From NCBI GenBank assembly GCA_021463465.1, contig JAJTYH010000003.1, positions 351,942 through 415,941 on the forward strand: DNA of 64,000 nt, written 5' to 3'. The position numbers and the translations under genes were made by a program. Shown here piece after piece: positions 2,244 through 41,400 of this stretch. Numbering within the stretch: position 1 is the stretch's first letter; every line of letters starts with the position of its first letter. Under the pieces are notes generated by a model. That model searched no databases. It was not told where the DNA came from and saw nothing but the letters and a program-made list of their open reading frames with translations. The DNA comes from a bacterium. GTDB taxonomy: Bacteria; Patescibacteriota; Dojkabacteria; SC72.

Positions 2244-3269
2244 ATGTCACCTAAAAATATTAATCAAGATAATGAGAAGGCTACCCCTAAAGAAGCTCGT
2301 AGTAAAGCTATTGAACTGGCGATCTCTCAGATTGAAAAACAGTTCGGCCAGGGTTCGATTATGAGATTGGGAAGTAGAGAAAAGATAAACATTGCAGCTA
2401 TACCCACTGGGGCATTGTCGCTTGATATTGCGCTTGGTATAGGAGGAATTCCAAGAGGAAGAATCATTGAGATTTATGGACCCGAATCTTCTGGTAAGAC
2501 TACTCTTGCTCAGCATATTTTAGCTGAAGCTCAAAAACTTGGTGAGAATGTAGCCTTTATCGATGCTGAGCATGCTTTTGATCCTACGTATGCTAAGTCA
2601 ATTGGTGTTGATATTGATAATCTTTTCATATCTCAGCCTGATTTTGGTGAACAAGCATTAGAAATTTTAGAGACATTGGTAAGATCAGCAGGTTTTGGTG
2701 TTATTGTTGTTGACTCAGTTGCTGCACTTACCCCAAGAGCTGAGATAGAAGGGGAAATGGGAGATAGTCATATGGGACTTCAAGCTCGTTTGATGTCGCA
2801 AGCTCTGCGTAAGGTTACTGCTATCGCCAGCAAGACTAATACTACAGTTATATTTCTTAACCAGTTGCGTATGAAGATTGGAATTATGTTTGGTAATCCA
2901 GAGACCACTACTGGTGGAAATGCGTTAAAGTTTTATGCTTCGGTTCGAATGGATATTCGTCAGAAAGAAAAAATTATGAAGGGAGATGAGGTGATTGGCC
3001 ATATTCGTGTCGTTAAGATTGTGAAGAATAAGGTTGCTCCTCCTTTTAGAGAAGCTTCTTTTAGTATCATTTATCCATTTGGAATTGATAAAGAAAGTAG
3101 TATCTTGGATGCCGCTCTCGCCAAAGGAATTCTTACCAAATCAGGGGCTTGGATTAGACATGGTGAAACACAGTTAGCACAAGGTCGTGAGTCTGCGATT
3201 GAGATGTTGAAAAATGACAAGGATTTAGCAAGAAAATTAGAAAAAGAAGTTAGAGCAACGATTAAGTAG
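2244..3269 (+). CDS. recA: recombinase RecA
   Basis: 341 aa. Walker [12 protein letters not shown], the block [25 protein letters not shown], and the L2 region [30 protein letters not shown] are all RecA hallmarks. Confidence 0.97.
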
Positions 3270-3925
3270 TGAAGATAACTAAAATTGAGTTACAGCAGAA
3301 GAGGCGGAGATTCAATCTCGAAATTGAAGGTAAGTTTGTCTGCTCTGTTTCTGCAACAACACTGACTCATTATAATCTGTATAAGGGTAAAGAGATTACA
3401 GAGGACGAAATTCAACAGATTGTTGATAAGGAGGTTGAAAATCGTTTCTTTGATAGGGCGGTTGCTCTACTTAGCGCACGTCTTAAAAGTCGTTGGCAAG
3501 TCACGCAATATTTGAACACTCTTTTTATTAAGAAGAAAGGGTTATGGTTTGGTAAAGATTTTCCTAATCAAGTAGGTGTAACTGAAAGTGTTTTGTCCAG
3601 ACTTGAAAAATTAGGATTAATAAATGACCATGAGTTTGCCAGAGCATTTGTTGAAGGTAGAATCAGAAGTAGACCCAGAGGAGGCTCGCAAATTATTGCT
3701 GAGCTTCTATCTAAAGGTATATCTAAAGAAATAGCTAAGACTGTTGTGTACGAAATATTGCCAGATAATGATGATATGATATTTAGAGTATTTAGAAAAA
3801 AGTATCCAAATCAAACTCTGGATTTAAAGAATCGTAAACAAATAGATTTTCTTTTAAGAAAAGGATTTGATTGGGATGATATATCTAAACTATCCAAACA
3901 ACTTAAAGATGACTCTCAAGAGTAA
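3269..3925 (+). CDS. recX: RecA regulator RecX
   Basis: 218 aa immediately after recA. The GTG start overlaps the recA stop (TAGTG). Three-repeat helical composition with LGLINDHEFARAFVEGRIRSRPRGGSQIIAELLSKGIS is typical of RecX. Confidence 0.7.
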   Translation: MKITKIELQQKRRRFNLEIEGKFVCSVSATTLTHYNLYKGKEITEDEIQQIVDKEVENRFFDRAVALLSARLKSRWQVTQYLNTLFIKKKGLWFGKDFPNQVGVTESVLSRLEKLGLINDHEFARAFVEGRIRSRPRGGSQIIAELLSKGISKEIAKTVVYEILPDNDDMIFRVFRKKYPNQTLDLKNRKQIDFLLRKGFDWDDISKLSKQLKDDSQE

Positions 3926-5624
3926 TAAAGTATGGAAAGTTGGAGCTGACCTTGATGCTACTAATCATGAAAAGATCATTACTGCATTACTTGAAAGTAG
4001 AGGAATAAAAGGCAAAAAAGCTGTCAATAATTTCTTAGACCCTAGTTTAGATCAAGTACCTGATGCTTCACTTCTTTTTGGTTGTGAGCAAGCAGCACAG
4101 CAAATACTTGAAGCTATTAAATCGTCGAAAAGTGTTTGCATACATGGAGATTTTGATTGTGATGGAGTTTGTGCAACAGCAATACTCTGGGACTTTTTAT
4201 ACAGAGAACTTGCTGATTTCTTGAAGGTTAAAATAAACGTTACTCCATATATTCCAAGTAGGGTAGATGAGGGGTACGGTTTGTCCGAGTCTTCGATTCA
4301 GGCTATGAAATCACAAGGTGCTCAGTTAGTGATAACAGTTGATTGTGGAATTCGAGATAGGAAATTAATTGAAAAACATACCTCAAAGGATTTCACTGTG
4401 ATAGTAACAGACCATCATGAACCTCCAGATGATGTGACAAAATTCGAATCTGTAGTTGTTCACCCGATGTATCCTGGAAGCGAATATCTCTATCCCAAAA
4501 TATGTGGAAGTGCGGTAGCTTTTTTGTTGACTCAATCGATACGTAAGGCTGCGGGTATGGAGTACGAATTGAAAGAGAGTGTAAAAGGTTTGGATTTAGT
4601 AGGTTTAGCTACTGTTACTGACATGATGCCCCTAGTAGAAGTTAACAGAGTTTTTGTTGTTTGGGGATTAAAACAGATGAAGCAAGATACTCGTTTGGGT
4701 TTGGATGCACTTTTAAGGTTGGCAACAGTAGATAAAACTAAATTGGATAGTTATCACTTCGGTTTTGTTATTGGCTCTAAGATCAATGCTGCGGGTAGGA
4801 TAGGGCATGCTATGGATGCCTTGCGCTTACTTTTAGCGCCTAATCCTAAGAGTGCAATGGAATACAGTAGTAATTTGCATAACCTGAATCTTAAAAGGCA
4901 GGTAAGTACAGAGGAAATATTGAAAGAGGTAGAAGGACAACTTAAAGAATTTGAAGATAAAAAGTTGGTATTTTTAACTGGAAAAAACTGGCATGAAGGT
5001 GTTATTGGCCTAGTGGCTGGACGTATTTTTGAGCGTACTGGTAAACCAACGATTGTAGTTACTTTATCGGGTAAGGAAGTTAAAGCTTCTGCCCGTAGCG
5101 GAAGTCAATTAAATATTACACAATTACTCAAGAAGCATTCTAAATATCTTGAGAAATATGGAGGGCATGCACAAGCGGCAGGGATGTCCATTAAACCCGA
5201 ATTACTTGAAGAATTTAAAACTAAACTCACAAAATACTGTGAGTTGAAACTTTCAAAGGATGATTTGAAATCTGAACTTGAAATTGATTTACGCATAGAG
5301 CCCCAAGATATAACTCAAGAGCTTTTTTCCACGCTAGAGAAGTTAAAGCCATATGGATTTGGAAATGCAAAACCAACTATTCTAATAGAAGACTTAAGTA
5401 TTATTGCAAAGCAAATTTTGAGTGGAGGTAAGCATATGAAGCTAAGCGTTGAAAAGGAAGGAAACCAAACTAATCTCTTAATGTTTAACTGTGATGAAGA
5501 TATCCCTTTATTATCCAATAATGACAGAATTTCGGTTGTTGGAAATATCTCATCAAGCGAATGGAACGGTAAAATGAATTTGGAATTTCAAGTCAGAGAG
5601 TATAAGTTGGGGGGTATGCAGTGA
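3909..5624 (+). CDS. recJ: single-stranded-DNA-specific exonuclease RecJ
   Basis: DHH-family motifs IHGDFDCDGVCATAILW and VTDHHEPP, DHHA1 motif GGHAQAAGMS, and a C-terminal OB region. The start is chosen at ATG 3909 (MTLKSNKVWKV), overlapping the recX end. The track ORF starts at 3867. Confidence 0.88.
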   Translation: MTLKSNKVWKVGADLDATNHEKIITALLESRGIKGKKAVNNFLDPSLDQVPDASLLFGCEQAAQQILEAIKSSKSVCIHGDFDCDGVCATAILWDFLYRELADFLKVKINVTPYIPSRVDEGYGLSESSIQAMKSQGAQLVITVDCGIRDRKLIEKHTSKDFTVIVTDHHEPPDDVTKFESVVVHPMYPGSEYLYPKICGSAVAFLLTQSIRKAAGMEYELKESVKGLDLVGLATVTDMMPLVEVNRVFVVWGLKQMKQDTRLGLDALLRLATVDKTKLDSYHFGFVIGSKINAAGRIGHAMDALRLLLAPNPKSAMEYSSNLHNLNLKRQVSTEEILKEVEGQLKEFEDKKLVFLTGKNWHEGVIGLVAGRIFERTGKPTIVVTLSGKEVKASARSGSQLNITQLLKKHSKYLEKYGGHAQAAGMSIKPELLEEFKTKLTKYCELKLSKDDLKSELEIDLRIEPQDITQELFSTLEKLKPYGFGNAKPTILIEDLSIIAKQILSGGKHMKLSVEKEGNQTNLLMFNCDEDIPLLSNNDRISVVGNISSSEWNGKMNLEFQVREYKLGGMQ

Positions 5625-7268: not shown

Positions 7269-9161
7269 GTGAAAAACATGGAACGTATATATACAACACA
7301 GACGTTAGAGAAAGTTGGAGAAAACGTTAAGCTGGCTGGTTGGGCTGAAACTGTCCGAAACCACGGCAAAATTGTCTTTATTATGCTTCAAGATATTAAA
7401 AGTGTTATTCAATGTGTCGGTGGCGAAGAGTTGCAGGATGTTTCGGAAGGATATGTTATTGAGATTGAAGGTAAAGTTAAAGAACGTCCTGAAAAAATGG
7501 TAAATAAAGGGATTGAGACAGGTACAGTTGAGGTTGAAGTCACCTCGTGTAAAATTTTAGCCAAAAGCAAAGAATCACCAATTCCACTAAACACAACTGG
7601 TTATGAAATAAACGAGGAAATGCGTCTTAAGTATAGGTACCTCGACCTTAGAAGAAATAGGATGCGGAAGATTATTAAATTGCGCTCTGAATTCGCACAT
7701 GTTGTTAGGAATGAGTTTGTGAAGCATAATTTCATAGAAGTTGAAACTCCTATGTTAGCTAAAGCTACAAAAGAAGGTGCACGCGACTTTATTGTTCCAT
7801 CAAGATACAACCCTGGAAAGTTTTATGCCTTACCTCAAAGTCCACAACAGTATAAGCAGATTCTTATGACAGCTGGTGTTGAGAGATACTTCCAGTTAGC
7901 AAGATGTGTCAGAGATGAAGATCTCCGCTCAGACCGTGGTTATGAATTTACTCAGATCGACTTAGAGATGAGCTTTGTTAATCGAGAAATGGTAATGAAC
8001 ACAACAGAATCAATCATCAAAGCCGCAGTAAATGCTGTTGGAGGAAAGATAAAGGCAGATCCATTCCCTGTAATTGACTACAAGGATGCAATGAAGAAAT
8101 ATGGTGGTGATAAGTTTGACTTAAGGACTGACAAAGAGAAAGAAGAAGGGGTTCTAGCTTTTGCATGGGTAATAAATTTTCCATTTTTTAAGAAGGTAAA
8201 CAAGGAGGACAGTGCAGAGGTTGATGACGGCAAGAGTGGTTGGGTTTTCACGCATAATCCATTCAGTAGACCCACACCAGAATTTGAACAACAGCACTTG
8301 AAGGGCGAAAATCCTGGGGAAATTTTAACTACGCAGTACGACTTGGTTTGTAACGGATACGAAGTAGGTGGAGGTAGTATTAGAGCGCATGAACCAGAGA
8401 TGCTTCGTGCTACTTACGAGATTATGGGTTACAGTGAGCAAGAAATTGAAGATGGTATCGGTCATATGCTTAGAGCTTTCGAACTTGGTACACCACCTCA
8501 CGGAGGTATAGCTTTCGGATTGGACCGTTTGGTTATGTTATTGGCAAACGAAAGTTCGCTTAAAGAGGTAATAGCATTTCCAATGACTTCTAAAGGTTCA
8601 ACTGCAGTTATGGATGCTCCTTCCATTGTCCAGCAAAAAGATTTAGCTGCATTACATTTAGATGTCACTGACAAAGGTGACTGGGCGGTTAAAAGTATTA
8701 AAGCAAAGTTGGACAATTTGGAAATTAAGTATGACTATTTGGAGCATGCGGAAGTTAGAACTTCAGAAGAAGCTGCAAAGGTTAGAAATGTTCCTTTAGA
8801 ATACGGTGCAAAAGCTATGGTTTTAGCTTCAAAGGAGTATGAGAATAAGCTTGCAATGGTGGTTATACCTGGTGACAAACTATTGGATTTAGAGAAGGTT
8901 AAAAAGGCTTTGGGTGAAGAGTTTGATGTAGCGCCAAAAGAGTTAGTTGAAAAGCGAACTGGAATTAAAATGGGTGGAGTTCCACCATTCGGTAGACTGT
9001 TTGGGATTGAAGTTTACATGGATGGAAGCTTTTGGAGCAAAGAGAAATCAGCCTTCAATTGTGGAAGACGTGATGCTTCAATTATAATGAACGCTAATGA
9101 CCTTATTAAAGCCGTACAACCCAACAAGATTTCGGAAGGCTCAAGCTTCACCAAAGAATAA
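7269..9161 (+). CDS. aspS: aspartate--tRNA ligase (GAD-less, archaeal-like core) with C-terminal YbaK/ProX-type aminoacyl-tRNA deacylase domain
   Basis: Class II motif 2 is FQLARCVRDEDLRSDRGYEFTQIDLEMSF and motif 3 is GGGSIRAHEPEMLRA...PPHGGIAFGLDRLVMLL. Only about 160 aa separate them, so there is no GAD insertion. The C-terminal roughly 160 aa (about 8676-9161) carry KAMVLASKEYENKLAMVVIPGDKLLDLEKVKKALG...RTGIKMGGVPPFG, close to YbaK (KTLLVAVNGD...LAVAVTPV...LDLKKVAKALG...GYLVGGISPLG). The track start GTG 7269 has an alternative at ATG 7278. Confidence 0.92.
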   Translation: MKNMERIYTTQTLEKVGENVKLAGWAETVRNHGKIVFIMLQDIKSVIQCVGGEELQDVSEGYVIEIEGKVKERPEKMVNKGIETGTVEVEVTSCKILAKSKESPIPLNTTGYEINEEMRLKYRYLDLRRNRMRKIIKLRSEFAHVVRNEFVKHNFIEVETPMLAKATKEGARDFIVPSRYNPGKFYALPQSPQQYKQILMTAGVERYFQLARCVRDEDLRSDRGYEFTQIDLEMSFVNREMVMNTTESIIKAAVNAVGGKIKADPFPVIDYKDAMKKYGGDKFDLRTDKEKEEGVLAFAWVINFPFFKKVNKEDSAEVDDGKSGWVFTHNPFSRPTPEFEQQHLKGENPGEILTTQYDLVCNGYEVGGGSIRAHEPEMLRATYEIMGYSEQEIEDGIGHMLRAFELGTPPHGGIAFGLDRLVMLLANESSLKEVIAFPMTSKGSTAVMDAPSIVQQKDLAALHLDVTDKGDWAVKSIKAKLDNLEIKYDYLEHAEVRTSEEAAKVRNVPLEYGAKAMVLASKEYENKLAMVVIPGDKLLDLEKVKKALGEEFDVAPKELVEKRTGIKMGGVPPFGRLFGIEVYMDGSFWSKEKSAFNCGRRDASIIMNANDLIKAVQPNKISEGSSFTKE

Positions 9162-10086
9162 AATTATACCAGGCGTTATTACAGGGATTCTTGCTCTTGC
9201 CTTGCTTATGTTTGGGTACGTGCTATATGAGCCAAAGCCGCAAGTGAGCTTTGAAACCCTTTCGTACATTGAACCAATTGCCCAGAGCCAATCAATGCAT
9301 GATTTGGGAGAAATTTCTAAATTCAAAACGCAAATCGGTCGAGTAAACTGGAAGAAAGTGAAGGCCGATTCAGTGTATGCGTTCAACCCTATTACTGGAC
9401 AGATATATTTTGCACGTAAGGAGCATACGCGACGCCCAATTGCGAGCATCACAAAGTTAGTGACGGCACTGACAGCATCGAATGTTTACAAATTGAATGA
9501 AACTCTTAAAATTGTTAAACCTATGCCAAGCATGGATAGGGCTATTGGGTTGAAGTTCGGAGATGAAATCGAGGTTGAAGATTTGATAAAGTGTGGACTC
9601 ATTGGCTCCCACAACGATTGCTCGAATACTTTAGCCTACCAATTCCCTTCAGGTTATGACAGGTTCATTAAAGAAATGAATCTTGTAGCAAAAGACTTAG
9701 GAATGGAGAATAGTCGGTTTAATAATCCCACAGGGTTTATTGATGACGGAAACTACTCAACAGCAAGTGATGTAGGCAGGTTGGCTTCAGCATTTGTAAG
9801 GAATGAAAAACTTTTGAAAATTACAGATAAAACCAAAGCTACAGTAAGTATTAATGGTGTTGATCCCAGAAAGGTGAATATCACTTCTACCAATATTTTA
9901 CTTTCTGAAATCAAAGAATTGAGTGGTCTGAAAACAGGTTTTACATATAAAGCAGGTGAGTGCCTGGTACTCTATTATGATTTCAACGGTGATAACAAGC
10001 TTATTACCGTGGTACTAAACTCTCCCGACAGGTTCGCTGATTCCAAGGTTTTAATGGAACTTGTTCAAGAAGCTTTTAGGAATTAA
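9097..10086 (+). CDS. D-alanyl-D-alanine carboxypeptidase (serine peptidase S11 / PBP5-like), membrane-anchored
   Basis: SxxK motif SITK (RRPIASITKLVTALTA), an SxN-like SHN, and KTG in GLKTGFT. The N-terminal positive patch plus TM is IIPGVITGILALALLMFGYVLY. The ATG at 9097 overlaps the aspS 3' end by 65 nt, so the true start is uncertain. Confidence 0.8.
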   Translation: MTLLKPYNPTRFRKAQASPKNKIIPGVITGILALALLMFGYVLYEPKPQVSFETLSYIEPIAQSQSMHDLGEISKFKTQIGRVNWKKVKADSVYAFNPITGQIYFARKEHTRRPIASITKLVTALTASNVYKLNETLKIVKPMPSMDRAIGLKFGDEIEVEDLIKCGLIGSHNDCSNTLAYQFPSGYDRFIKEMNLVAKDLGMENSRFNNPTGFIDDGNYSTASDVGRLASAFVRNEKLLKITDKTKATVSINGVDPRKVNITSTNILLSEIKELSGLKTGFTYKAGECLVLYYDFNGDNKLITVVLNSPDRFADSKVLMELVQEAFRN

Positions 10087-11405
10087 AAGAATCCAATCCC
10101 AGTATCTTCCTTAGGGACTTCTTGTTCCGCAATCTTGTTTTTCACTAGATTGTAATCTATCGCTGGTACATAGTAGTGGAAAATTCCTACGACTCCAGTA
10201 CTTAATGTAGCCTCACCTGAAATAATATATACAGGTTGCAAGAACTTGGCTTCGGTTTGCGGTTCATAATAACCTAAGGTTATGTTATATATTCTGAAAC
10301 TGCTGACCTTACGAGGTATGTATGTAGCAACATCGTCCCCATTTTTCTCATTGAGATATATCAAACTACCCTTACCTTGTTGCACGGTTTCTAGTGCAGT
10401 TTGGGGAGGAATCAGTTGATAAGTGCCACAAGCTTGTGGGTCGATAGGCCAGTAGGTAAAGTCAGCTCCGTAAACGTACCTGGCGTTGGTATCTTGGGTT
10501 TTGTCTCTGTCATTTTTAGGGCCAATGTAGACTGAGATATTGGGATGGTTTGGGTCTTGGAATGCAACGATAGTATCGAAATTGTATATATCGATTCGTC
10601 CTTTATCTGAAAGAATTGAGTCAGTAGTACTTTTGAATAGCTTCTTTTCCAAACTGTCTCGAATACGTTTAGCATCCTGCAGGTCACTTCTGACGGAAAT
10701 TAAAGGCTTCTGCCGATAAAAGTCTACTCTGAGTAATTCTGCATCTGCTCTGGATCTGGCCTGAGTGTAGGTGCCGTTTGGTTGGATATTTATGTTAACG
10801 ACTTTTGGGGTGATTTTGAAATAATCTTCAAATAACAATCCTTTGCCTCTTAGATAGTTAGAAGCTAAGTTGATAGCTTCGTTTTCGTTAGGAAGAGCAC
10901 TACTGTTATCGATTGCACCAATACGTGTGAAATCAGTTCGTAGTTGGAAGTTTAAATTACGGGCTTGAACAACTAGGGTTCTAAAGTTCTTAGAGTCATA
11001 CCATATGTACTCTGCACTACCTCTGCGCTGAAGTAGGTTTGGGTTGAACCCCAGTTTCTCTGCAATGATTTTTGATTCTCCTTGTGCATTAAGTGATTGC
11101 CCAGGGATACTAAATTTGTGTGTATTAACAACTCTGGGTAATGAGTCAACTTGACCTGATTGTGTTTCTAGTTCAAAGACTAAGTCCGAACCAGCGGCAA
11201 GTGAAAGAGAAGGGATTTCAAGTTTATTTTTCAAGAAATCATCGCGGAGTTCAGTACATGCGTAGTTAGGAGTGAGGAAGTCTCCTGGATCCTGTGTAGC
11301 ATTGAGTGCCAATATTACAGTCACAGCAATGATCATGATTACCAGACCGATACCTCCAATCACTCCGAAACGTTTTGTCCAGTGGGCTGCCTCAGTTAAA
11401 GTCAT
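10083..11405 (-). CDS. hypothetical N-terminally membrane-anchored extracytoplasmic protein
   Basis: 440 aa. The N-terminal TM is FGVIGGIGLVIMIIAVTVILAL. There are no recognisable catalytic motifs. Confidence 0.5.
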   Translation of the reverse strand: MTLTEAAHWTKRFGVIGGIGLVIMIIAVTVILALNATQDPGDFLTPNYACTELRDDFLKNKLEIPSLSLAAGSDLVFELETQSGQVDSLPRVVNTHKFSIPGQSLNAQGESKIIAEKLGFNPNLLQRRGSAEYIWYDSKNFRTLVVQARNLNFQLRTDFTRIGAIDNSSALPNENEAINLASNYLRGKGLLFEDYFKITPKVVNINIQPNGTYTQARSRADAELLRVDFYRQKPLISVRSDLQDAKRIRDSLEKKLFKSTTDSILSDKGRIDIYNFDTIVAFQDPNHPNISVYIGPKNDRDKTQDTNARYVYGADFTYWPIDPQACGTYQLIPPQTALETVQQGKGSLIYLNEKNGDDVATYIPRKVSSFRIYNITLGYYEPQTEAKFLQPVYIISGEATLSTGVVGIFHYYVPAIDYNLVKNKIAEQEVPKEDTGIGFF

Positions 11406-11447: not shown

Positions 11448-13004
11448 ATGCAACAAAGATTTAGGGCCGCACCAAGCCCTACAGGTAAGGTTCATATTGG
11501 TACTATTCGAGCATATTTACCTAACTTTTTGTTGGCCAAAAAGTATGGGGGAAAAAATATATTGAGAATTGAGGATACTGATCAGACTAGGCTAGTACCA
11601 AATGGAGTTGAAGCTATGATTGAAGCCTACGAAGAGGTGGGTATTTCCTTTGATGAAGGTCCCCACAAAGAGGGAGATTTTGGCCCGTATATACAATCTC
11701 AAAGACTCGATATTTATAAGAAATATGCTCAAGAGCTTTTGGATAATGATTATGCTTATTACTGTTTCTGTACTAAAGAACGCCTTGAAGAATTAAGGGA
11801 AACCCAAAAAGCAAATAAACAGAAACCAAGATACGATGGATTTTGTAGGAATATAGACAAGAGTGAGGCATTGAAACGGGTTAATGATGGGGAAGCACAT
11901 GTTATTCGAATGAAGTTTCCCCAGGAAGGTGGAACTGTTTGTCATGATCTTATATTTGGTAAAGTGAGCGTAAAAAATAGTGATGTAGAGGATCAGGTAT
12001 TAATGAAGGCCGATGGTTTTCCAACTTATCATCTAGCAGTTGTTGTAGACGATCATTTAATGGGAATAACCACTGCAATTCGAGGAGTAGATTGGCTCCC
12101 AAGTTTCCCTAAGCATGTAAAACTTTATGAATTCTTTGGATGGGAACTTCCCAAATTTGCACATTTGCCATTAATACTTAATCCAGACGGTAGAAAGAAA
12201 CTAAGTAAAAGGCATGGAGCTTTTCCAGTCAGTCAGATCTTGAGAAAAGGATATTTAAAAGAGGCTGTAATGAACTATGCCATGTTGTGTGGGTGGTCTC
12301 CAAAACCGGAGCTTGCGCATCAGGATGAGATTTACACTGTAGAAGAATTAATAAAACTGTTTGATTTGGATAGAGTTCATAAAACGGCTGCTCGATACGA
12401 TCAGGCTAAATTTGATTATATTAACTCTAAACATATTAGACGTCTTACCATTGATCAGTTTTCAGAAAGGATTATTGATTGGGCAAAGAGATATGTGATG
12501 CGAAGATTTATTAGCGATGAGTACACCGAAGCAGCGGAGTGGGAAGCAGAAGTAAAAAGTTTTGTAGAGAAGTATCTACCTTTATGGGAGAAAGACTTGG
12601 AGTATTTCAAGCGAGCTTTAGCACTCGAGCATGAAAGGATAACGGTTTTATCCGAGGTTCCTTCTGCTTTAGACTTTTTCTATGAGAAAGAATTAAGTTG
12701 GGAGGATAGTGATTGGAATACCAAGAATCATACTAAGTCAGAATTGGCTGATGCTTTAGAAAAGCTGCTTCCAAGATTAGAAGAAATTTTCAAAGGAAAT
12801 CAGTTTGACCATGAAGCATGGGAGAAAGTTGTCAGAGGATTAGCGGATGAATTAAACTGGAAACATGGAGATATGTTCATGGCGGTAAGGTCGGCTACAA
12901 CTGGTCGTTTACAGAGTCCTCCACTACTTGAAAGTTTTGAAATTATGGGTTGGGAGAAAGTAAAAGCTTTTGTAGAGCAAGCCATTGTTTGGTTGAGAAA
13001 ATAG
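11448..13004 (+). CDS. gltX: glutamate--tRNA ligase
   Basis: HIGH-type motif PSPTGKVHIGTIRAY and KMSKS-type motif KLSKRHG, with class I GluRS architecture. An extended -10 TGgTATAAT lies at 11404-11413. Confidence 0.92.
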   Translation: MQQRFRAAPSPTGKVHIGTIRAYLPNFLLAKKYGGKNILRIEDTDQTRLVPNGVEAMIEAYEEVGISFDEGPHKEGDFGPYIQSQRLDIYKKYAQELLDNDYAYYCFCTKERLEELRETQKANKQKPRYDGFCRNIDKSEALKRVNDGEAHVIRMKFPQEGGTVCHDLIFGKVSVKNSDVEDQVLMKADGFPTYHLAVVVDDHLMGITTAIRGVDWLPSFPKHVKLYEFFGWELPKFAHLPLILNPDGRKKLSKRHGAFPVSQILRKGYLKEAVMNYAMLCGWSPKPELAHQDEIYTVEELIKLFDLDRVHKTAARYDQAKFDYINSKHIRRLTIDQFSERIIDWAKRYVMRRFISDEYTEAAEWEAEVKSFVEKYLPLWEKDLEYFKRALALEHERITVLSEVPSALDFFYEKELSWEDSDWNTKNHTKSELADALEKLLPRLEEIFKGNQFDHEAWEKVVRGLADELNWKHGDMFMAVRSATTGRLQSPPLLESFEIMGWEKVKAFVEQAIVWLRK

Positions 13005-13033: not shown

Positions 13034-13104
13034 TGCCAGGTCGTCTAATGGTAGGACTACGCTCTCTGGAAGCGTGTATCTTAGTTCGAATCTAAGCCTG
13101 GCAA
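13034..13104 (+). tRNA. tRNA-Gln (anticodon CUG)
   Basis: The cloverleaf was folded by hand. Acceptor is TGCCAGG/CCTGGCA (U1:A72, as is typical of bacterial tRNA-Gln). D arm is GTCT-AATGGTA-GGAC. Anticodon arm is ACGCT-CTCTGGA-AGCGT, giving anticodon CTG. T arm is CTTAG-TTCGAAT-CTAAG. Discriminator is A. Confidence 0.85.
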
Positions 13105-22558: not shown

Positions 22559-25438
22559 ATGTCCAAATTACAAAATGTAGATCCAAAGCATGATTTTGTA
22601 GCTATGGAAAATCGTCTACTTAAATGGTGGGAGGAGCAAGGGATACTGACTCAGTACATGGAAAAGAATCGAAAATCGAAAAAGAAGTTCGGTTTTATTG
22701 ATGGACCAATCACCGCTAATAATGAGATGGGACTTCACCACGCTTGGGGTAGAACCTACAAAGACTTAGTAAGTCGTTATAAAAACATGCAGGGCTTCGA
22801 GCAGCGTTTCCAGATGGGTTTTGACTGTCAGGGACTTTGGGTTGAGGTAGAAGTTGAGAAAGCACTTGGGTTTAACAGTAAGAAAGACATTTTCGATTAC
22901 GGTATGGATAAGTTTGTGAATGCTTGTAAAGACAGAGTATACAAATATTCAAAAATACAGACAGACCAATCAGTTAGATTGGGAATGTTCATGGATTGGG
23001 AGAACTCATACTACACAATGTCAGAGGAAAACAATCTTTACATCTGGAACTTCTTAAAGGTATGTCAACAAAAAGGATTGTTGTATAAGAGCCACTCATC
23101 GACCACTTGGTGTCCACGTTGTGAGACAGGTTTGTCTGAGCATGAAAAAGCTGATGGATACGCTGATATTGTTGATACTTCGGTCTACGTGAAATTCAAG
23201 GTAAAAGGTAAGGAGAATGAGTACCTTTTAGCTTGGACTACCACACCTTGGACTCTATCAGCAAATGTGTTGTTAGCTGTACATCCTGAACTTGAGTATG
23301 TCAAAGCCAAAGATGGAAATAGTACATACTATCTTGCGGCTAAACCTGCGGGAAAATTAGGTTTTAAAGATGTAGAGAGTGTAGATGTCAAAACCTTGGT
23401 TGGTATGAAATTTGAATCCCTTTATGATATCCCAGCACAGGAAGGCGTTGACCACTATGTAGTTGAGTGGGATTTAGTATCTGAGAATGATGGGTCAGGA
23501 ATTGTTCATATCGCACCAGGGTGTGGTCAGGAAGATTATGAGTTGGGTATGGAATTAAAAGTCCCTGCATTGTCACCGTTGGATGAAACTGGTCACTATA
23601 TGAATGGGTATGGTGATTTAACAGGTAAGTACGCCCATGACGTGAAAGATGAAGTCATATCCTATCTTAAGTCCGAAGGTTTATTGTTTAAGACCGAGGA
23701 TTACAAGCATACCTACCCTCACTGTTGGAGGTGCAAGACAAAGTGTTTGTTCCGGTTAGAAAACAATTGGTTTATTAATATTAGTAAGATAAGAGAAGAT
23801 TTAAAGAAAGCCGCTAATGAAGCTAAATGGACCCCAGAATTTGGAGGAAAACGAATGCAAGATTGGCTGAGGAATATGGGTGATTGGATGATAAGTAGAA
23901 AGCGTTTTTACGGCCTTGCCCTTCCATTTTATGAGTGTGAATGCGGTGAGGTTACAGTAGTTAGCGGTAAGGAAGAATTGAAGCAATTAGCAACAGATCC
24001 AGGAAAGGTTGATAAGTTGGAAAGCATACATCGACCTTGGATTGATGAGGTCACTATCAAATGCCCGAAGTGCAGCAAAGAAGTTAAGCGTGTTGCAGAT
24101 GTAGGTGACTGTTGGCTAGATGCCGGAGTGGTCCCATTTTCGACCTTAAAGTATCTTGAAGATAAGAAATATTGGAAGAAATGGTTCCCAGGCGATTTCA
24201 TAACTGAAATGGTTGAGCAGGTACGTTTATGGTTCTACTCAATGTTGGTTTTTGGTGTAGTTATGGAAGATAAGGTTCCTTATAGAGTGGTGGTAACCTA
24301 CGCTGAAATGAGGGATGAGAATAACAATAAAATGAGCAAGACAAAGAAGAACTATGTGCCGTTTAATGAAGCTGCGGACAAGGTTGGGGCAGATTTAATC
24401 CGTTGGAACTTCTGTCTTTCACCGTTTGGTAAGAATGTAAGATTTGGTTGGAATGTAGTTGAAGATGCTAGGCGTCAATTCTTATTGCCATTCTGGAACA
24501 GCTATTCATATTTTGTGACTTATGCAAATATGCACAGTTGGAAGTTTGATCCTAAATTTGATGCTAGCAAACTGACGAATATAATGGATCGATGGATTGT
24601 AGCCAGATTAGGTAAACTAGTAGAAGAAGTCACCAATGACATGGACCAATACAGTTTCTACGGTAGCGCAAATAAGATGCAAGCGTTTGTTGTGGACCTT
24701 TCCACTTGGTATATTCGACGTAGTCGAGATCGATTTAAAGTAGGCAATAAGGATGCCCTTAATACTCTCTATTTTGTTCTTGTAGAGCTTAACAAGATGC
24801 TTGCGCCTTTTGTTCCATTTGTGACCGAGGAGATGTATCAAAATCTAGTGGTCAATGGTGGAAATAAGGATGCTAAGATGTCTGTACATTTGGAAAGTTT
24901 TCCTGAGGTAAAGGAAGTTGATGAGAAGGTGCTTGAAGATATGGAGGTGGCAAGGGGAGTGGCATCACTTGGTCTTAAGGTTCGAGATGAGAAGCGATTA
25001 AAATTACGACAACCTTTGGCTAAAGCTTATGTTAATCTTAATTCAGAAGAGCTTAAAGAACTTGTAAGATTGGAGCTGAATGTGAAAGAAGTGGAGAGTA
25101 GCGAGAAAGCTCAGCAAGGAGAAGGAATGGTGATGATGGAAGGCAATGGATACTTTGTCACTCTGGATACTAATTTGACTGAAGAGCTAAAACAGGAGGG
25201 TTTGTACCGTGAATTGGTAAGGCAACTACAGGATTTGAGAAAACGTAATGGATTACAGGTAGGACAGCAGGTAGCAGCATTAATGTACAGTGAAAGTAAG
25301 GAAGTCGAGAATTTGGTAGGTAAATTTGATTCAGAATTAAGGCAGGATGTAAGCCTTTCTGATATAAAATTTGCCAAAAACGATGGTGAAAGTGTAAACT
25401 TTGACTCGTTTGATGTTAATGTTACTTTTGAAAAATAA
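22559..25438 (+). CDS. ileS: isoleucine--tRNA ligase
   Basis: HIGH-type motif MGLHHAWG and KMSKS motif NNKMSKTKKN. The CP1 editing domain and anticodon-binding region are present. 959 aa. Confidence 0.96.
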   Translation: MSKLQNVDPKHDFVAMENRLLKWWEEQGILTQYMEKNRKSKKKFGFIDGPITANNEMGLHHAWGRTYKDLVSRYKNMQGFEQRFQMGFDCQGLWVEVEVEKALGFNSKKDIFDYGMDKFVNACKDRVYKYSKIQTDQSVRLGMFMDWENSYYTMSEENNLYIWNFLKVCQQKGLLYKSHSSTTWCPRCETGLSEHEKADGYADIVDTSVYVKFKVKGKENEYLLAWTTTPWTLSANVLLAVHPELEYVKAKDGNSTYYLAAKPAGKLGFKDVESVDVKTLVGMKFESLYDIPAQEGVDHYVVEWDLVSENDGSGIVHIAPGCGQEDYELGMELKVPALSPLDETGHYMNGYGDLTGKYAHDVKDEVISYLKSEGLLFKTEDYKHTYPHCWRCKTKCLFRLENNWFINISKIREDLKKAANEAKWTPEFGGKRMQDWLRNMGDWMISRKRFYGLALPFYECECGEVTVVSGKEELKQLATDPGKVDKLESIHRPWIDEVTIKCPKCSKEVKRVADVGDCWLDAGVVPFSTLKYLEDKKYWKKWFPGDFITEMVEQVRLWFYSMLVFGVVMEDKVPYRVVVTYAEMRDENNNKMSKTKKNYVPFNEAADKVGADLIRWNFCLSPFGKNVRFGWNVVEDARRQFLLPFWNSYSYFVTYANMHSWKFDPKFDASKLTNIMDRWIVARLGKLVEEVTNDMDQYSFYGSANKMQAFVVDLSTWYIRRSRDRFKVGNKDALNTLYFVLVELNKMLAPFVPFVTEEMYQNLVVNGGNKDAKMSVHLESFPEVKEVDEKVLEDMEVARGVASLGLKVRDEKRLKLRQPLAKAYVNLNSEELKELVRLELNVKEVESSEKAQQGEGMVMMEGNGYFVTLDTNLTEELKQEGLYRELVRQLQDLRKRNGLQVGQQVAALMYSESKEVENLVGKFDSELRQDVSLSDIKFAKNDGESVNFDSFDVNVTFEK

Positions 25439-29933: not shown

Positions 29934-30284
29934 ATGGCTAAACCCTCAGTCAACTTTCTACGATCAGAAAACCTCGAATTTAATACTGGAATTGACCTGA
30001 ATCGTGAATTGGTGAATCATCCTCTCTCTACATTTTTTCTCAGAGTCGCTGATGAAATCCCTGGAGAAGATTCAATTATAAGAGGTGATGTATTGGTAGT
30101 TGACCGTTCTGAAGTCTTAGTTGAGGGTAAAAACTTAGTTTATTCTGACGGTGATAGATTGCTTTGGGGGCAAGTAATCAAAAAGGTCGACGGTTTTTGG
30201 ATTAGGAGAGGTGAACAGTATTTCAAATTGAATGAAGAAACTGAAGTGTGGGGTAATATAACTTATATTATTCGCAAAGTATGA
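29934..30284 (+). CDS. UmuD'-like protein (S24 peptidase fold, apparently lacking catalytic Ser and cleavable N-terminus)
   Basis: GIDLNRELVNHPLSTFFLRVADEIPGEDSIIRGDVLVVD...QVIKKV aligns with E. coli UmuD [39 protein letters not shown]...TVKKL. The Ser of GDSM aligns to Ile, while the Lys is conserved. Only 19 aa precede the IDLN block, against about 41 in UmuD, with no Cys-Gly/Ala-Gly site. The track start is TTG 29877 and ATG 29934 is preferred. The stop overlaps the next gene (ATGA). Confidence 0.65.
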   Translation: MAKPSVNFLRSENLEFNTGIDLNRELVNHPLSTFFLRVADEIPGEDSIIRGDVLVVDRSEVLVEGKNLVYSDGDRLLWGQVIKKVDGFWIRRGEQYFKLNEETEVWGNITYIIRKV

Positions 30285-31513
30285 AAAAAGTCTTTATGTT
30301 AGTTGATTGCAATAATTTTTTTGTGTCATGTGAGCGGGTTTTCAATCCGAAATTGCGAAGTGTCCCCACAGTAGTACTTTCAAATAATGAAGCCTGTGTT
30401 ATTGCCAGATCTAATGAAGCGAAGGATATAGGGATAAAGATGGCTGAGCCAGTCTTTAAGTGCCGCGATATCCTGAATTTCTTTGATGTGAAATGTTTTT
30501 CTACTAATTTCGCTCTTTATGGAGATTTATCTTCTAGGGTTATGAGGATTTTGGAAAGTTTTTCACCTAAAGTTGAAAGCTACTCTGTCGACGAAGCCTT
30601 CTTAGATATCACGGATTTAGAAGAGGCTAACTACTTCGATTTTGGTAAAGCTGTAGGGGATCGGGTTTACAAATATGTCGGCATACCCGTTTCCGTAGGT
30701 ATTGCGCCTACTAAAACCCTAGCCAAGATTGCATCCAAACAAGCCAAAAGAAGTGGAGGAGTTTGTGTCCTTTTAGAAGGGGTCAATACAGTTTTGAAAG
30801 CTACACCTGTAGGGGAAGTGTGGGGTATTGGTTGGGCTTCAACCAAGAAGCTAAGGCAAAATAGCGTTCATACCGCTTATGATTTCGTCAATCAAAAACC
30901 TTCATGGATTGTAAATCGGTTTGGTGTGGGAGGAGCTCGGACTTACTGGGAACTTAAAGGCAAGAGTGTCTCTGAAGTAAATAATGCTAAAGCTTTGCCT
31001 AAATCTATGGCTCACACGCGCTCTTTTAAGAATCCAATTACCGAGAAATCTGAAATGCGCAAACGTCTAGTTAATTTTGCGAGTAGCGTAGCTGCGGCCT
31101 TGAGGGCAGACAATCTTTTATGCCATGAGGTTATTGTTTTTCTTAAAGGAGATAAAAACCGTGACGTCTACTATTCTAACGGCGTCACCTTGCCGTTGGA
31201 AAATTACAGTAACCTGCGAACTGACATTGTGAAGTTGGTTGGGAAAGGATTGGATCGTTTGTTCAAATCCGGTGAAAGGTATAAAAGAGCTGGGATTGTA
31301 GCGATTAATATCATCTCATCTAAAGATAATAATTCGCTCTTTGAGAACAATACAAAACGAAAGGAAGTTGCAGAACGTGCGGTCGATCTCTTAAATGCTA
31401 AATGGGGGCGAACAATTACGGTGGCTTCAGATATGTTGGTGAAACCAGAGAAAACGTTTAGCAGGAGTCCTGAGTTCACTACTAAGTGGCAGGAGTTGGC
31501 TTTAGTTTTTTGA
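30281..31513 (+). CDS. Y-family translesion DNA polymerase (UmuC/DinB-like)
   Basis: N-terminal catalytic blocks LVDCNNFFVSCE and SVDEAFLDIT (acidic triad), with palm/fingers/little-finger length of 410 aa. Confidence 0.85.
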   Translation: MKKVFMLVDCNNFFVSCERVFNPKLRSVPTVVLSNNEACVIARSNEAKDIGIKMAEPVFKCRDILNFFDVKCFSTNFALYGDLSSRVMRILESFSPKVESYSVDEAFLDITDLEEANYFDFGKAVGDRVYKYVGIPVSVGIAPTKTLAKIASKQAKRSGGVCVLLEGVNTVLKATPVGEVWGIGWASTKKLRQNSVHTAYDFVNQKPSWIVNRFGVGGARTYWELKGKSVSEVNNAKALPKSMAHTRSFKNPITEKSEMRKRLVNFASSVAAALRADNLLCHEVIVFLKGDKNRDVYYSNGVTLPLENYSNLRTDIVKLVGKGLDRLFKSGERYKRAGIVAINIISSKDNNSLFENNTKRKEVAERAVDLLNAKWGRTITVASDMLVKPEKTFSRSPEFTTKWQELALVF

Positions 31514-38434: not shown

Positions 38435-41400
38435 ATGCTAAGAAAGTTATTTAAACTCCCCAAGAGATATTTTTCTCGATTTATTTCTATTTATCTTGCA
38501 CTTTATCTTACAGTAAGTCCTGCATTAGCCTTCGCAACTACGGAAGGGCTTTTGGTGGATGAAGGCGCTCAAAGTACACCTGTAGTAGCGGAAGAAGAGA
38601 CGGTGCAGACTCCTGAGCCCACAGTCGAAGAAGAATCATCAGAAGTTACGCCTGAACCAGAAGTTGAACCTGAGGTTGTACCGGAGCCAAAGGTAGATGA
38701 ACCTGAAAATGATGAGGTTGATGTAGACGTAGTTAAGTCAGCGGATGGCGAACTTGAAGTTGGTGTGATTGAAACTACACAGTGTTTGGAAAACTCTCTC
38801 AACCCTTGTATTGGAACAGATAAGGAAGATTACGCACCGCATGAGGTAGTTACGTTGAGAGGCCATGGTTACTTACCAGAAAGTCGATACCTACTCATTA
38901 TTACTTCAGCTAATCAACCTCCTGTACGTTTTGAAGCTGAAATTATTACAAACAGCATTGGTGGTTTTAATTACAGTTATCAATTGGATGGTAGATATCG
39001 TCCTGATTACGCAGTAGAGGTTAGGAGTTTGCTCGGTGATATTATTGCAACAGATACATTTACTGATAGTCGTACTATCAATTCTGCTACAGTGAACGGC
39101 GTTGCGAGTATAACCGTCGCTCAGGGTACAACAATATTAGGTGGGGTTAACGTTTCTACAAATGGAAGTGGAAATAATGATGATTGGGCAAGTACGGGAT
39201 GGAGAATCTCTACAAGTGCTCCTGGTGGAGTTAGTTGTGATAATTTCGAGCCCGACATTACCGACGATGTAATGGGTGCTACTAAAGCCTTTAATATGAC
39301 AGCTCCTAATACACCAGGTATTTATAATGCATACTTTATTGCTTACAACAACGATAGTTGTAGCGGTGGAGCAAGTGCAGTCTACGTTCTTGAAAATGCT
39401 GTTACAGTGACAGGACCTGATCTTACAATTTCAAAAAGCAATGATGTAGGAGGTGTTGTAAATGTTGGAGGCTCATTTAACTGGATTATTACGGTTAAAA
39501 ATGAAGGGACTTCATCTGCCATCTTTAACAATGAAGATATTTTGTCGGACTCATTACCAAATGATGGGGTATCGTTTGTTGATACAAGTGATTTGGTAGT
39601 AACAACTGCGGGGGGAGTAACTGGTTCTATTGATTGCGATATTAACAGTAGTACACTTGTTTGCGACGATAACAGCGGTGGCTCTACAGTTGTAATTCCT
39701 GCTGGCGGTTCGTTTACTGTTACAGTCGAAGTGATTGCAAATGAAATTAGAACTTTATCTAACCCAAGAAAAGGTGGAAAGTGTGAAGTTGACCCAAATG
39801 AAGAAGTCGCTGAACAAAATGAGCATAATAATAAGTGTAATGACTCAGTGAAAGTTAACCCAGATACTGGAGTTACTAATCCACCGTTAGGACAATTTTG
39901 TGGCTTAGACATTGCTCTTGTTCTTGATAATTCTACAAGTATAAGCTCAGGAGAGTTGACTCAGATGAAAGCTGCAATGACTGCGTTTACATCCGCATTC
40001 AATGGTACACCTACCGAGTTTTCCGTCTCAAGATTCGCCACTACTGCATCGGTCGTTCAATCATTTACTTCCAATATAACTGCAGTTAACGCTGCAATTA
40101 ATGGAATTCCTTCAGGCGGAGGGTATACAAACTGGGAAGATGGTTTATTTAAAGGTCAAAGTACTTTGACAAATAGACCTACATACCCTGATTTGATGAT
40201 TTTTGCTTCCGATGGTAATCCAAATAGGGTTGATAACGGTACAGATGCAAGTGAGTCGCAAGCAGTAAGCGAAGCTAAAATCATTGCAAATAACATAAAA
40301 ACTGCAGGGGTGAGGATACTTGCACTTGGGATAGGTGATGAGCTGGATACACCTAATCTACAGACTATCTCTGGTAATAATGTTAATACTGGTATTAGTT
40401 CTGATGTTATAACTTCGGACTTCGCGACCCTTGCTGCCGATTTAGCTGATTACGCTATTCAACTTTGTGGAGGAACTATTAATGTAAAAAAATTGGTTGA
40501 CGGTAATCCTGCTGCTAACTGGGTATTTACTATTGATGGTGATCAGCATATTACAGGAGCTGATGGCTTTATCCCTTCAGTTGAAGTAGATAATGGTACT
40601 TACAGTGTAGTTGAGACTCCAAAGAATGGATTTACATTCCAATCTGCCGTTTGTACGATCAACAATCAGTCAGTAGGTTCACCGATTACTAATGGCGTAG
40701 GAGCAATCTCAGTAGATTCAAACGATATTGTGACCTGTACATTTAACAATATTACGAACGCATTCTGTGGCGATGGAGTTGTGAACCAGCAGTCCGAGCA
40801 GTGTGACAGTGGAGCTTCCAATGGTATTGCTTGTACTCCAACTTATGCTAACAGCTGTAATTACTGTAGTAACACCTGTCAAACCGTGAATATTCATGGG
40901 CCATACTGTGGTGATGGAATCAAGAATGGTCCTGAGCAGTGTGATGGCTCAGATGGTGTATCTGGGTCTGATTTCGCATGTACACAGAGTTGTGAGTTGG
41001 ATTTGGTTGAAAAGAAAGTAATGATCTGTCATGCGACAAGTAGTAATACTAATCCTTATGTCTCTAATGAACCTGCTAAATCAGCTGATGTAGCGGGTCA
41101 TGATGGCCATAATGGACCAGTTTGGTCTGCAGGAATTGATGGCGATTGGGGAGATATTATACCTCCGTTTAATTATGTAGGAGGTTCATATCCAGGCAAG
41201 AACTGGACAGCTGAGGGTCAAGCGATTTGGAATAATCAATGCGAAATTGAAAAGGGAACTATTGTTGTACAAAAGACCACTGTACCAGCAGGCAATCAAA
41301 CCAACTTTGATGTTTCTATAACTGGGGATGGATATATTTTTGAAAATGATAAAGGTACTGTAAGTGATTCACAGGATCACTCATTTATCGTTGAACCAGG

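Follow-up and report, generated by a model that had tools for sequence, protein, structure and literature searches.

Close described counterparts of the protein reported here are found among prolyl-tRNA synthetases (ProRSs): the ProRS INS domain and the ProXp-ala–ProRS fusions both join a deacylase of the INS fold to a class II synthetase for proofreading. The INS domain of ProRS sits between motifs 2 and 3, and in protist ProRS the deacylase is N-terminal. A study in Leishmania reported only ProRS–YbaK fusions (PMC3532385), and a 2024 review treats the non-ProRS INS members as single-domain proteins and lists no fusion of an INS domain with aspartyl-tRNA synthetase (AspRS) (PMC11295145). A further precedent is the AspRS–GatC fusion (model NF009460), in which a module of tRNA metabolism is appended to the C-terminus of a bacterial AspRS. 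Here, we analyzed a 64,000-nucleotide stretch (hereafter the window) of contig JAJTYH010000003.1 (assembly GCA_021463465.1) from a member of the Dojkabacteria, in which one gene, aspS-edit, encodes an AspRS followed by a predicted INS-superfamily aminoacyl-tRNA deacylase. In contrast to the ProRS proteins, the partner is AspRS and the deacylase stands after the native C-terminus, connected via a flexible linker; in contrast to the AspRS–GatC fusion, the appended module is a deacylase. A full-text literature search found no description of an AspRS–INS fusion. The protein brings a known deacylase family and a known synthetase together in an undescribed, recurrent and apparently selected combination.

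The interval 7269..9161 of the plus strand is a single open frame of 630 aa without internal stops, which the gene-finding program begins at a GTG. The start is most likely the ATG at 7278, because an identical public protein of 627 aa exists (P0001, 100% identity, encoded on a 453-kb contig and named “aspartate--tRNA ligase [bacterium]”); residues, e.g., K512, are numbered here from this ATG. Pfam assigns tRNA_anti-codon to aa 20-97 (E = 1.8e-09), tRNA-synt_2 to aa 115-440 (E = 1.3e-107) and tRNA_edit (PF04073) to aa 493-614 (E = 9.6e-25; 87.5 bits, the gathering score being 25.5; positions 1-122 of the 123 in the profile). The initial annotation had claimed a covalent fusion with a YbaK/ProX-superfamily domain at residues 470-630 (8676-9161), and our results bear this out: the gene is uninterrupted, the superfamily match lies at the C-terminus, the coordinates coincide with the folded deacylase of the AlphaFold model (residues 467-627 plus the stop), and the search for relatives with the same fusion showed that the best 120 public clusters all carry it. 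The junction region (about 8560-8700), for which a hidden stop or frameshift had been considered, contains no stop or frame change in the window sequence and, judged by conservation, is continuous in relatives. The features of the locus are collected in Table 1.

Table 1. Features of the aspS-edit locus in window coordinates; the last row refers to the coordinates of the related locus L089.
Feature	Coordinates	Strand	Basis or remark
aspS-edit fusion gene	7278..9161	+	627 aa from ATG 7278; program open reading frame from GTG 7269
Oligonucleotide/oligosaccharide-binding (OB)-fold anticodon-binding domain, PF01336	7326..7559	+	Pfam, E 1.8e-09
Class II (IIb) AspRS catalytic core, bacterial-type	7611..8588	+	Pfam, equivalog models, structure alignments
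QSPQQYKQ of the AspRS core, including the Asp-binding QSPQ motif	7836-7859	+	
Motif 2 of the AspRS core, RCVRDEDL (aa 209-216)	7902-7925	+	
Site of the missing bacterial GAD insertion (~120 aa)	8124..8162	+	DKFDLR, then TDKEKEEGVL connector, then AFAWVINFPFF
THNPFS of the AspRS core	8250-8267	+	
Motif 3 of the AspRS core, GLDR (aa 414-417)	8517-8528	+	
Flexible linker: the C-terminal tail native to bacterial AspRS, continued by the deacylase	8604..8666	+	pLDDT < 50
INS-superfamily (tRNA_edit) aminoacyl-tRNA deacylase domain, YeaK/ProXp-ST1-like clade	8676..9158	+	
Catalytic Lys K512 (predicted)	8811..8813	+	Aligned with K46 of H. influenzae YbaK
GxxxP substrate-binding loop GGVPPFG (predicted)	8973..8993	+	Aligned with GGISPLG of H. 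influenzae YbaK
Downstream Peptidase_S11 gene (D-Ala-D-Ala carboxypeptidase-like)	9097..10086	+	Conserved syntenic neighbor
Noted genes of locus L089	2288-2857, 7014-7751, 8416-9804		

The full-length AlphaFold model (mean predicted local distance difference test score [pLDDT] 83.9, predicted template modeling score [pTM] 0.63) is confident in both halves of the protein, and the segments of low confidence, 443-452 and 455-463 (pLDDT < 50), delimit a linker of ~20 residues that, by structure alignment, is the usual C-terminal tail of bacterial AspRS. In one relative (locus L020), aspS and the deacylase are separate genes in the same frame, 6 nt apart; a single TGA separates them, and an ATG stands two codons further on. 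Recoding of this TGA was ruled out, as long open reading frames (ORFs) of the contig are intact under translation table 11 and use TGA as a stop. The split pair is collinear with the fusion junction, arguing that the fusion arose by stop-codon loss between adjacent genes or that L020 represents fission of a fused gene. Although this split version lends some weight to a sequencing error at the junction having joined two genes in the window, such an artefact is scarcely credible: the same continuous protein occurs in more than 120 independent clusters from NCBI, JGI, ENA and Logan, 62 further fusions are found on archaeal-type cores, one of them in a complete chromosome (CP129475.1), and the window itself has neither a stop nor a frame change.

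To place the C-terminal domain, its AlphaFold model (domain alone; pLDDT 93.7, pTM 0.87) was compared with the PDB using Foldseek, in which the top 37 matches all belong to the INS superfamily (E down to 1e-13, template modeling [TM] score up to 0.89), including YbaK, ProX/ProXp-x, APE2540, lpg1207, Atu3699, ProXp-ala and ProRS INS. A family hidden Markov model (HMM) built from 25 fused deacylase domains scores E. coli YeaK/ProXp-ST1, evaluated with the same HMM and the same database size, at 120 bits, within the 110-208 bits spanned by the free-standing relatives. Lower scores are obtained for lpg1207 of Legionella pneumophila (3op6; 97-99 bits, 98.8 for the listed match, E = 2.8e-27), the closest solved structure by sequence, and for APE2540 (62 bits), ProXp-x (60 bits) and YbaK (56-59 bits); ProXp-ala (46 bits) and ProRS INS (42 bits) are only distantly related. 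A profile alignment (hhalign) of the family with YeaK, i.e., E. coli K-12 b1787, annotated as “mischarged aminoacyl-tRNA deacylase”, reaches 99.8% probability over 154 columns. In a neighbor-joining tree, the clade of the window domain includes YeaK and lpg1207 as nested members, whereas YbaK and APE2540 fall outside. A neighbor-joining tree of the deacylase domains (152 columns) has low resolution, and we derive no count of fusion events from it. By sequence, the nearest characterized relative of the deacylase is YeaK/ProXp-ST1, at 25% identity; a search of curated equivalog models yielded no ProXp-ST1 model matching the window protein. The earlier designation of the domain as YbaK/ProX-type is correct at the superfamily level, but YbaK proper does not describe it, given the scores above and the failure of the window protein to approach the YbaK equivalog cutoffs (TIGR00011, 55.6 against 153.25; NF007951, 33.3 against 243). 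What the domain shares with YbaK, a Cys-tRNAPro deacylase, is the fold (TM 0.74-0.85), the catalytic Lys corresponding to K46 and the GxxxP loop. ProXp-ST1 is a Ser/Thr-tRNA deacylase of broad tRNA specificity (PMC11295145), and its substrates include Ser- and Thr-tRNAs made by the class IIb LysRS (PMC7373986). YeaK shares with the window domain the H, R, K, GxxPPF, D, FNxG, S and D motifs, yet it is a free-standing single domain, whereas the window domain, a predicted deacylase, is tethered to AspRS. Conflicting automated names (Cys-tRNAPro deacylase in some cases, Ala-tRNAPro deacylase in others) show that the free-standing members of the subfamily are themselves uncharacterized.

Lys and the GxxxP loop are the defining catalytic elements of the INS superfamily (PMC11286415), and K46 of YbaK is critical by mutagenesis, as cited in PMC3532385. 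Alignment with H. influenzae YbaK agrees with the loop match proposed in the initial annotation and defines the loop of the window protein as G566-G-V-P-P570. K512, G566 and P570 are invariant in 48 AspRS-linked representatives and nearly so in 105 free-standing ones, and P569 is present in 100% of the fused set and 88% of the free-standing set. H490, T495-S496, R503, D582, F593-N594-x-G, S601 and D608 are strongly conserved in both sets; YeaK carries this full signature except that K-C replaces T-S. In lpg1207, which is free-standing and uncharacterized, the H...K...GxxPPFG...FNAG motifs are likewise shared, but the equivalents of S496 and R503 are A and H. As judged from this conservation, the catalytic signature is under purifying selection, and its retention in fused and free copies alike argues that the window deacylase is not a relic. 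Two other proteins, P0124 (448 aa) and P0141 (491 aa), contain three tandem tRNA_edit domains and belong to a different subfamily, because the S496 and R503 signature is absent from them. P0185 (286 aa, on a 1-kb contig) joins GmrSD_N, a restriction endonuclease N-terminal domain, to tRNA_edit; this architecture may be a real, defence-related one or a short-contig artefact.

The synthetase half is, by sequence, a bacterial-type AspRS from which the GAD insertion has been precisely deleted. In agreement with the initial annotation, GAD (PF02938) has no Pfam match in the window protein even at E <= 1, and the structure alignments skip the GAD stretch only: residues 16-290 align with 15-290 of M. 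smegmatis AspRS (4rmf) and residues 294-457 with 412-574, leaving out target residues ~291-411, such that solved bacterial AspRSs contain ~120 residues more between the two aligned blocks than the window core. Compared with the canonical enzymes of E. coli (1c0a) and M. smegmatis, the core is orthologous and differs in the absence of this insertion. The window protein passes the bacterial AspRS equivalog cutoffs (NF001750, 571.3 against 443; TIGR00459, 501.8 against 373.85; each matched in two stretches) and fails those of the archaeal-type models (NF003483, 212.1 against 353; TIGR00458, 183.8 against 368.4). Consistent with this, the core scores 347-373 bits against the solved bacterial AspRSs of M. 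smegmatis, T. thermophilus (AspRS1), E. coli and P. aeruginosa, versus ~135 bits against archaeal AspRS structures. The core had previously been called archaeal/eukaryal-type, with motifs 2 and 3 only ~160 aa apart; the type has to be revised, and the spacing between RCVRDEDL and GLDR is ~200 aa. The convention that the presence of GAD marks a bacterial-type AspRS (PMC4206432) explains how the archaeal-type inference came about. Within the core, the bacterial AspRS “histidine loop” HHPF (HHAF in 4rmf) reads THNPFS, in which the second His is replaced by Asn; the motif does not vary within the fused family, and it also contributed to the pattern by which unfused AspRSs of Patescibacteria were retrieved.

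A scan of species-representative genomes with patterns derived from the full-length fusion alignment, of which the best 80 loci were considered, shows that GAD-less bacterial-type AspRSs of 456-537 aa are widespread in Patescibacteria, i.e., in Saccharibacteria, Paceibacteria, Shapiro-, Kaiser-, Lipton-, Morani-, Harrison-, Roizman-, Uhr-, Wildermuth-, Nomura- and Berkelbacteria. Among these loci, 43 of Patescibacteria type (L001-L043) encode AspRS without GAD, like the window protein, whereas the ordinary bacteria retrieved by the same patterns have AspRSs of ~600 aa with GAD. The 80 loci include no fused gene, only the split pair in L020, and carry no information on the taxonomic frequency of the fusion; scanning the genome contigs with the single deacylase sequence of the window returned no relative. 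The full-text literature search found no description of GAD-less bacterial AspRS in Patescibacteria. These enzymes break the GAD rule and can mislead automated and manual classification alike. The loss of GAD in the window protein raises the possibility that the appended domain acts non-catalytically, as an extra tRNA-binding, dimerization or structural module substituting for GAD, in the manner in which appended domains of trans-editing factors, such as the C-terminal domain of plant ProXp-ala, can enhance tRNA binding or dimerization (PMC11295145). We consider such a role very improbable, since no fused copy departs from the Lys and the GxxxP loop and many GAD-less AspRSs of Patescibacteria function with no deacylase attached. 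Replacement of GAD by the deacylase in particular is ruled out by fusions that retain GAD, described below.

The fusion is, as judged from public sequences, common in Candidatus Dojkabacteria. All of the best 120 public protein clusters matching the window protein have the three-domain architecture (54-100% identity, 613-703 aa), and their named members are Candidatus Dojkabacteria/WS6 or Patescibacteria, under the protein names “aspartate--tRNA ligase”, “YbaK/EbsC family protein” and “amino acid--tRNA ligase-related protein”. In the bacterial-type core clade (98% support), 34 members are fused and five are unfused. Bacterial AspRS fusions of ~745 aa that contain GAD are represented by P0122 and P0173, indicating that the fusion is independent of GAD loss. 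The locus of P0122 has the same gene order as the window, i.e., aspS-edit, Peptidase_S11, a minus-strand ORF (45% identical) and the gene for glutamyl-tRNA synthetase (GluRS; 65% identical), and the order aspS-edit, S11, minus-strand ORF and gltX is conserved in L086. A second fused clade (P0129, P0170, P0177 and P0182; 100% bootstrap) has an archaeal-type core, which reaches 445-508 bits with the equivalog model “aspartate--tRNA(Asn) ligase”, whose cutoff is 353, and finds its best PDB matches in T. kodakarensis AspRS and T. thermophilus AspRS2. Of the 119 archaeal-type relatives listed, 62 carry the deacylase and 57 lack it; the named fused proteins come from Dojkabacteria and one Doudnabacteria. 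In the complete 1.17-Mb chromosome CP129475.1, the archaeal-type fusion is flanked by a SPOUT methyltransferase gene and by the MraZ/cell-division cluster, with the same upstream neighbors in L087, a locus different from that of the window. No large contig is common to the lists of bacterial-type and archaeal-type fusions, which would fit, as a weak inference, with the two fused AspRS types probably not occurring together in one genome. Because the same module is found on two unrelated versions of AspRS, the pairing appears, from these sequence comparisons, to be selected rather than accidental.

Where the synthetase is not fused, the deacylase can change its partner. In L082 and L083, the unfused aspS core (57% identical to that of the window) is inverted while the deacylase stays in place, joined to the downstream Peptidase_S11 via a predicted membrane-spanning segment. 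The resulting genes (L082 5001-6461 and L083 1986-3446, divergent from the inverted aspS; also P0146 and P0189) encode an N-terminal tRNA_edit domain, a hydrophobic segment and Peptidase_S11, a D-Ala-D-Ala carboxypeptidase, an arrangement that, from its sequence, resembles a cell-wall enzyme carrying a cytoplasmic deacylase anchored in the membrane. In the window, the separate S11 gene begins in the +1 frame, its ATG lying 65 nt before the fusion stop, where the last helices of the deacylase are encoded (9097-9161). Another candidate for a standalone deacylase adjoining aspS, L084, was discarded, as its 463-aa neighbor is not an AspRS.

That the domain is an active, flexibly tethered post-transfer proofreading module functionally coupled to AspRS is the leading explanation and, in our assessment, an even call. 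We infer catalytic activity, coupling to AspRS products and substrate identity from architecture, homology, conservation, the linker and recurrence. In this mechanism, the AspRS dimer would bind and aminoacylate tRNA, and, after release of the 3′ end from the synthetic site, the deacylase on its tether would sample the aminoacyl-CCA at high local concentration and hydrolyze non-cognate esters through its Lys/GxxxP machinery while sparing Asp-tRNAAsp, in a mode closer to a tethered trans-factor than to a rigid cis-editing site. By homology, the leading candidate substrates on tRNAAsp would be small neutral polar residues, Ser/Thr-like and possibly Asn, and a Ser/Thr-like specificity would automatically spare the cognate Asp-tRNAAsp made alongside; Asp on tRNAAsn is the second candidate. 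The sister class IIb LysRS mischarges Ser, Thr and Ala (PMC4173786; PMC7373986). The further proposition that the AspRS of Dojkabacteria is a genuine editing synthetase, with the domain proofreading its own error (Ser/Thr/Asn-tRNAAsp or Asp-tRNAAsn), is tentative, and we would sooner doubt than assert it.

Several observations weigh against proofreading coupled to AspRS. To our knowledge, AspRS counts as a synthetase able to do without proofreading, no requirement for editing is known for it, and it is not among the ten synthetases with described editing. Editing has been described for only 10 of the 23 aminoacyl-tRNA synthetases (PMC7373986). The 25% identity and the T-S versus K-C difference mean that Ser/Thr specificity may not transfer from YeaK. 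Free-standing proteins make up most of the subfamily (105 of the best 150 representative clusters), which extends to large genomes, some free-standing members being encoded on contigs of 3.3-3.4 Mb; the copy in L084 is not beside aspS. Fused and free copies do not differ in the catalytic signature, close relatives in both core clades may have or lack the fusion, no core residue co-varies with, or compensates for, the fusion state in either AspRS background, and the module persists on Peptidase_S11 instead of AspRS. All of these are equally compatible with the domain being a generic ProXp-ST1-like Ser/Thr trans-editing factor that merely rides on AspRS and clears errors of other synthetases (AlaRS, ThrRS, ValRS, IleRS and LysRS), having been fused through stop-codon loss between neighbors with co-expression in a compact genome as the only gain; L020 would be its simple adjacent-gene precursor, and ProXp-ST1's broad tRNA specificity (PMC11295145) would suit it. 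We nevertheless hold a generic factor to be somewhat unlikely, in view of its partners. Of the best 150 deacylase clusters, about 20 carry the domain on a tRNA-synt_2 (AspRS-type) core or on the truncated C-terminus of such a core; none of these 150 has a different synthetase as partner. Chance recurrence with the same one of ~20 synthetases is unlikely. Specific coupling is favored because the partner recurs on non-orthologous AspRS types at different loci and because the module remains beside aspS even when unfused (L020 and L082). The initial annotation had offered economy of tRNA quality control in a reduced genome as one motive; the repeated pairing with AspRS favors a specific link over such economy.

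The alternative target, Asp-tRNAAsn, has to be weighed against the tRNA and pathway context. If AspRS were non-discriminating, the module could remove Asp-tRNAAsn that escapes, or is unserved by, GatCAB, for which it would have to tell tRNAAsn, with its U1-A72 pair, from tRNAAsp. The “aspartate--tRNA(Asn) ligase” equivalog recognizes the archaeal-type fused partners, the window tRNAAsn has U1-A72 and G73, INS members can read acceptor-stem identity (PMC11295145), and, as GAD is proposed to assist in retaining Asp-tRNAAsn (PMC3367201), its loss could raise leakage. However, a domain positioned beside the site of Asp-tRNAAsp synthesis must not hydrolyze Asp esters generally, the nearest characterized relatives act on Ser/Thr and not on acidic residues, and the existence of GAD-containing fusions weakens this reading. 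U1-A72, shared by the tRNAAsn and tRNAGln of the window, is compatible with GatCAB use but not diagnostic of it, being present in 77 of 89 genera that have only AsnRS and GlnRS. In addition, gatC and gatA lie 3.3 kb downstream of one fused aspS, arguing that the module does not simply replace a missing GatCAB. Taken together, a dedicated Asp-tRNAAsn deacylase is, in our view, improbable. The locus with gatC and then gatA, L089 (encoding the GAD-containing fusion P0273), also contains genes for a Translin-family protein and a TrmB-like regulator, an unusual mix.

Should the AspRS of Dojkabacteria prove to be a genuine editing synthetase, it would join the synthetases with post-transfer editing, and an Asp/Asn-codon fidelity problem would be strong enough to drive fusion on two non-orthologous AspRS types. 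The recurrence on bacterial-type AspRS, with and without GAD, and on archaeal-type AspRS in one candidate lineage points to an unrecognized problem of Asp/Asn fidelity or, alternatively, to a new way of deploying a Ser/Thr-tRNA deacylase. Reduced genomes, such as those of Mycoplasma and microsporidia, usually lose editing domains (PMC7373986), and gain of one in ultra-small Patescibacteria runs against this trend. The fusion offers a direct test system that consists of a single recombinant protein, its K512A point mutant and a truncated version.

Regarding the surrounding pathway, the GluRS gene of the window (11448-13004) is directly followed by tRNA-Gln(CTG) (13034-13104; U1-A72, A73), and no GlnRS is present among the window ORFs scanned, which is consistent with an indirect pathway to Gln-tRNAGln. 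No gatCAB, asnS, dtd, proS or thrS was found among the 21 larger window ORFs scanned (under half of the ORFs of at least 150 aa) or in ~8 kb beyond the right end of the window. In some other Patescibacteria, AsnRS is present and adjoins aspS; in the Uhrbacteria-type loci L023 (3978-5393) and L022 (1153-2523), an AsnRS above the NCBIfam cutoffs is encoded directly upstream of a GAD-less aspS. In L028, from a Parcubacteria genome, a 672-aa class IIb synthetase paralog (8143-10158) is encoded ~700 nt downstream of aspS; its C-terminal ~350 aa resemble archaeal-type AspRS/AsnRS, below the cutoffs, and are preceded by an N-terminal extension of ~325 aa. Contigs of metagenome-assembled genomes in L020, L037 (labeled Woesearchaeota), L039 and L041 (labeled Methanosarcinales) carry a bacterial-type GAD-less aspS like that of the Candidate Phyla Radiation, accompanied by AsnRS in L039 and by the adjacent deacylase gene in L020; for the archaeal-labeled contigs, either horizontal transfer into DPANN-type archaea or mis-binning would account for this.

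Elsewhere in the window, a class I synthetase of 959 aa, IleRS-like and ending in DUF5915, is encoded at 22559-25438, RecA at 2244-3269, RecJ at 3867-5624 and a UmuC/DinB-like Y-family polymerase at 30281-31513. A giant ORF of 2644 aa (38435-46369) contains VWA, SpaA-type prealbumin-fold and DUF11 domains, and its product is probably a surface adhesin or pilus-like protein.

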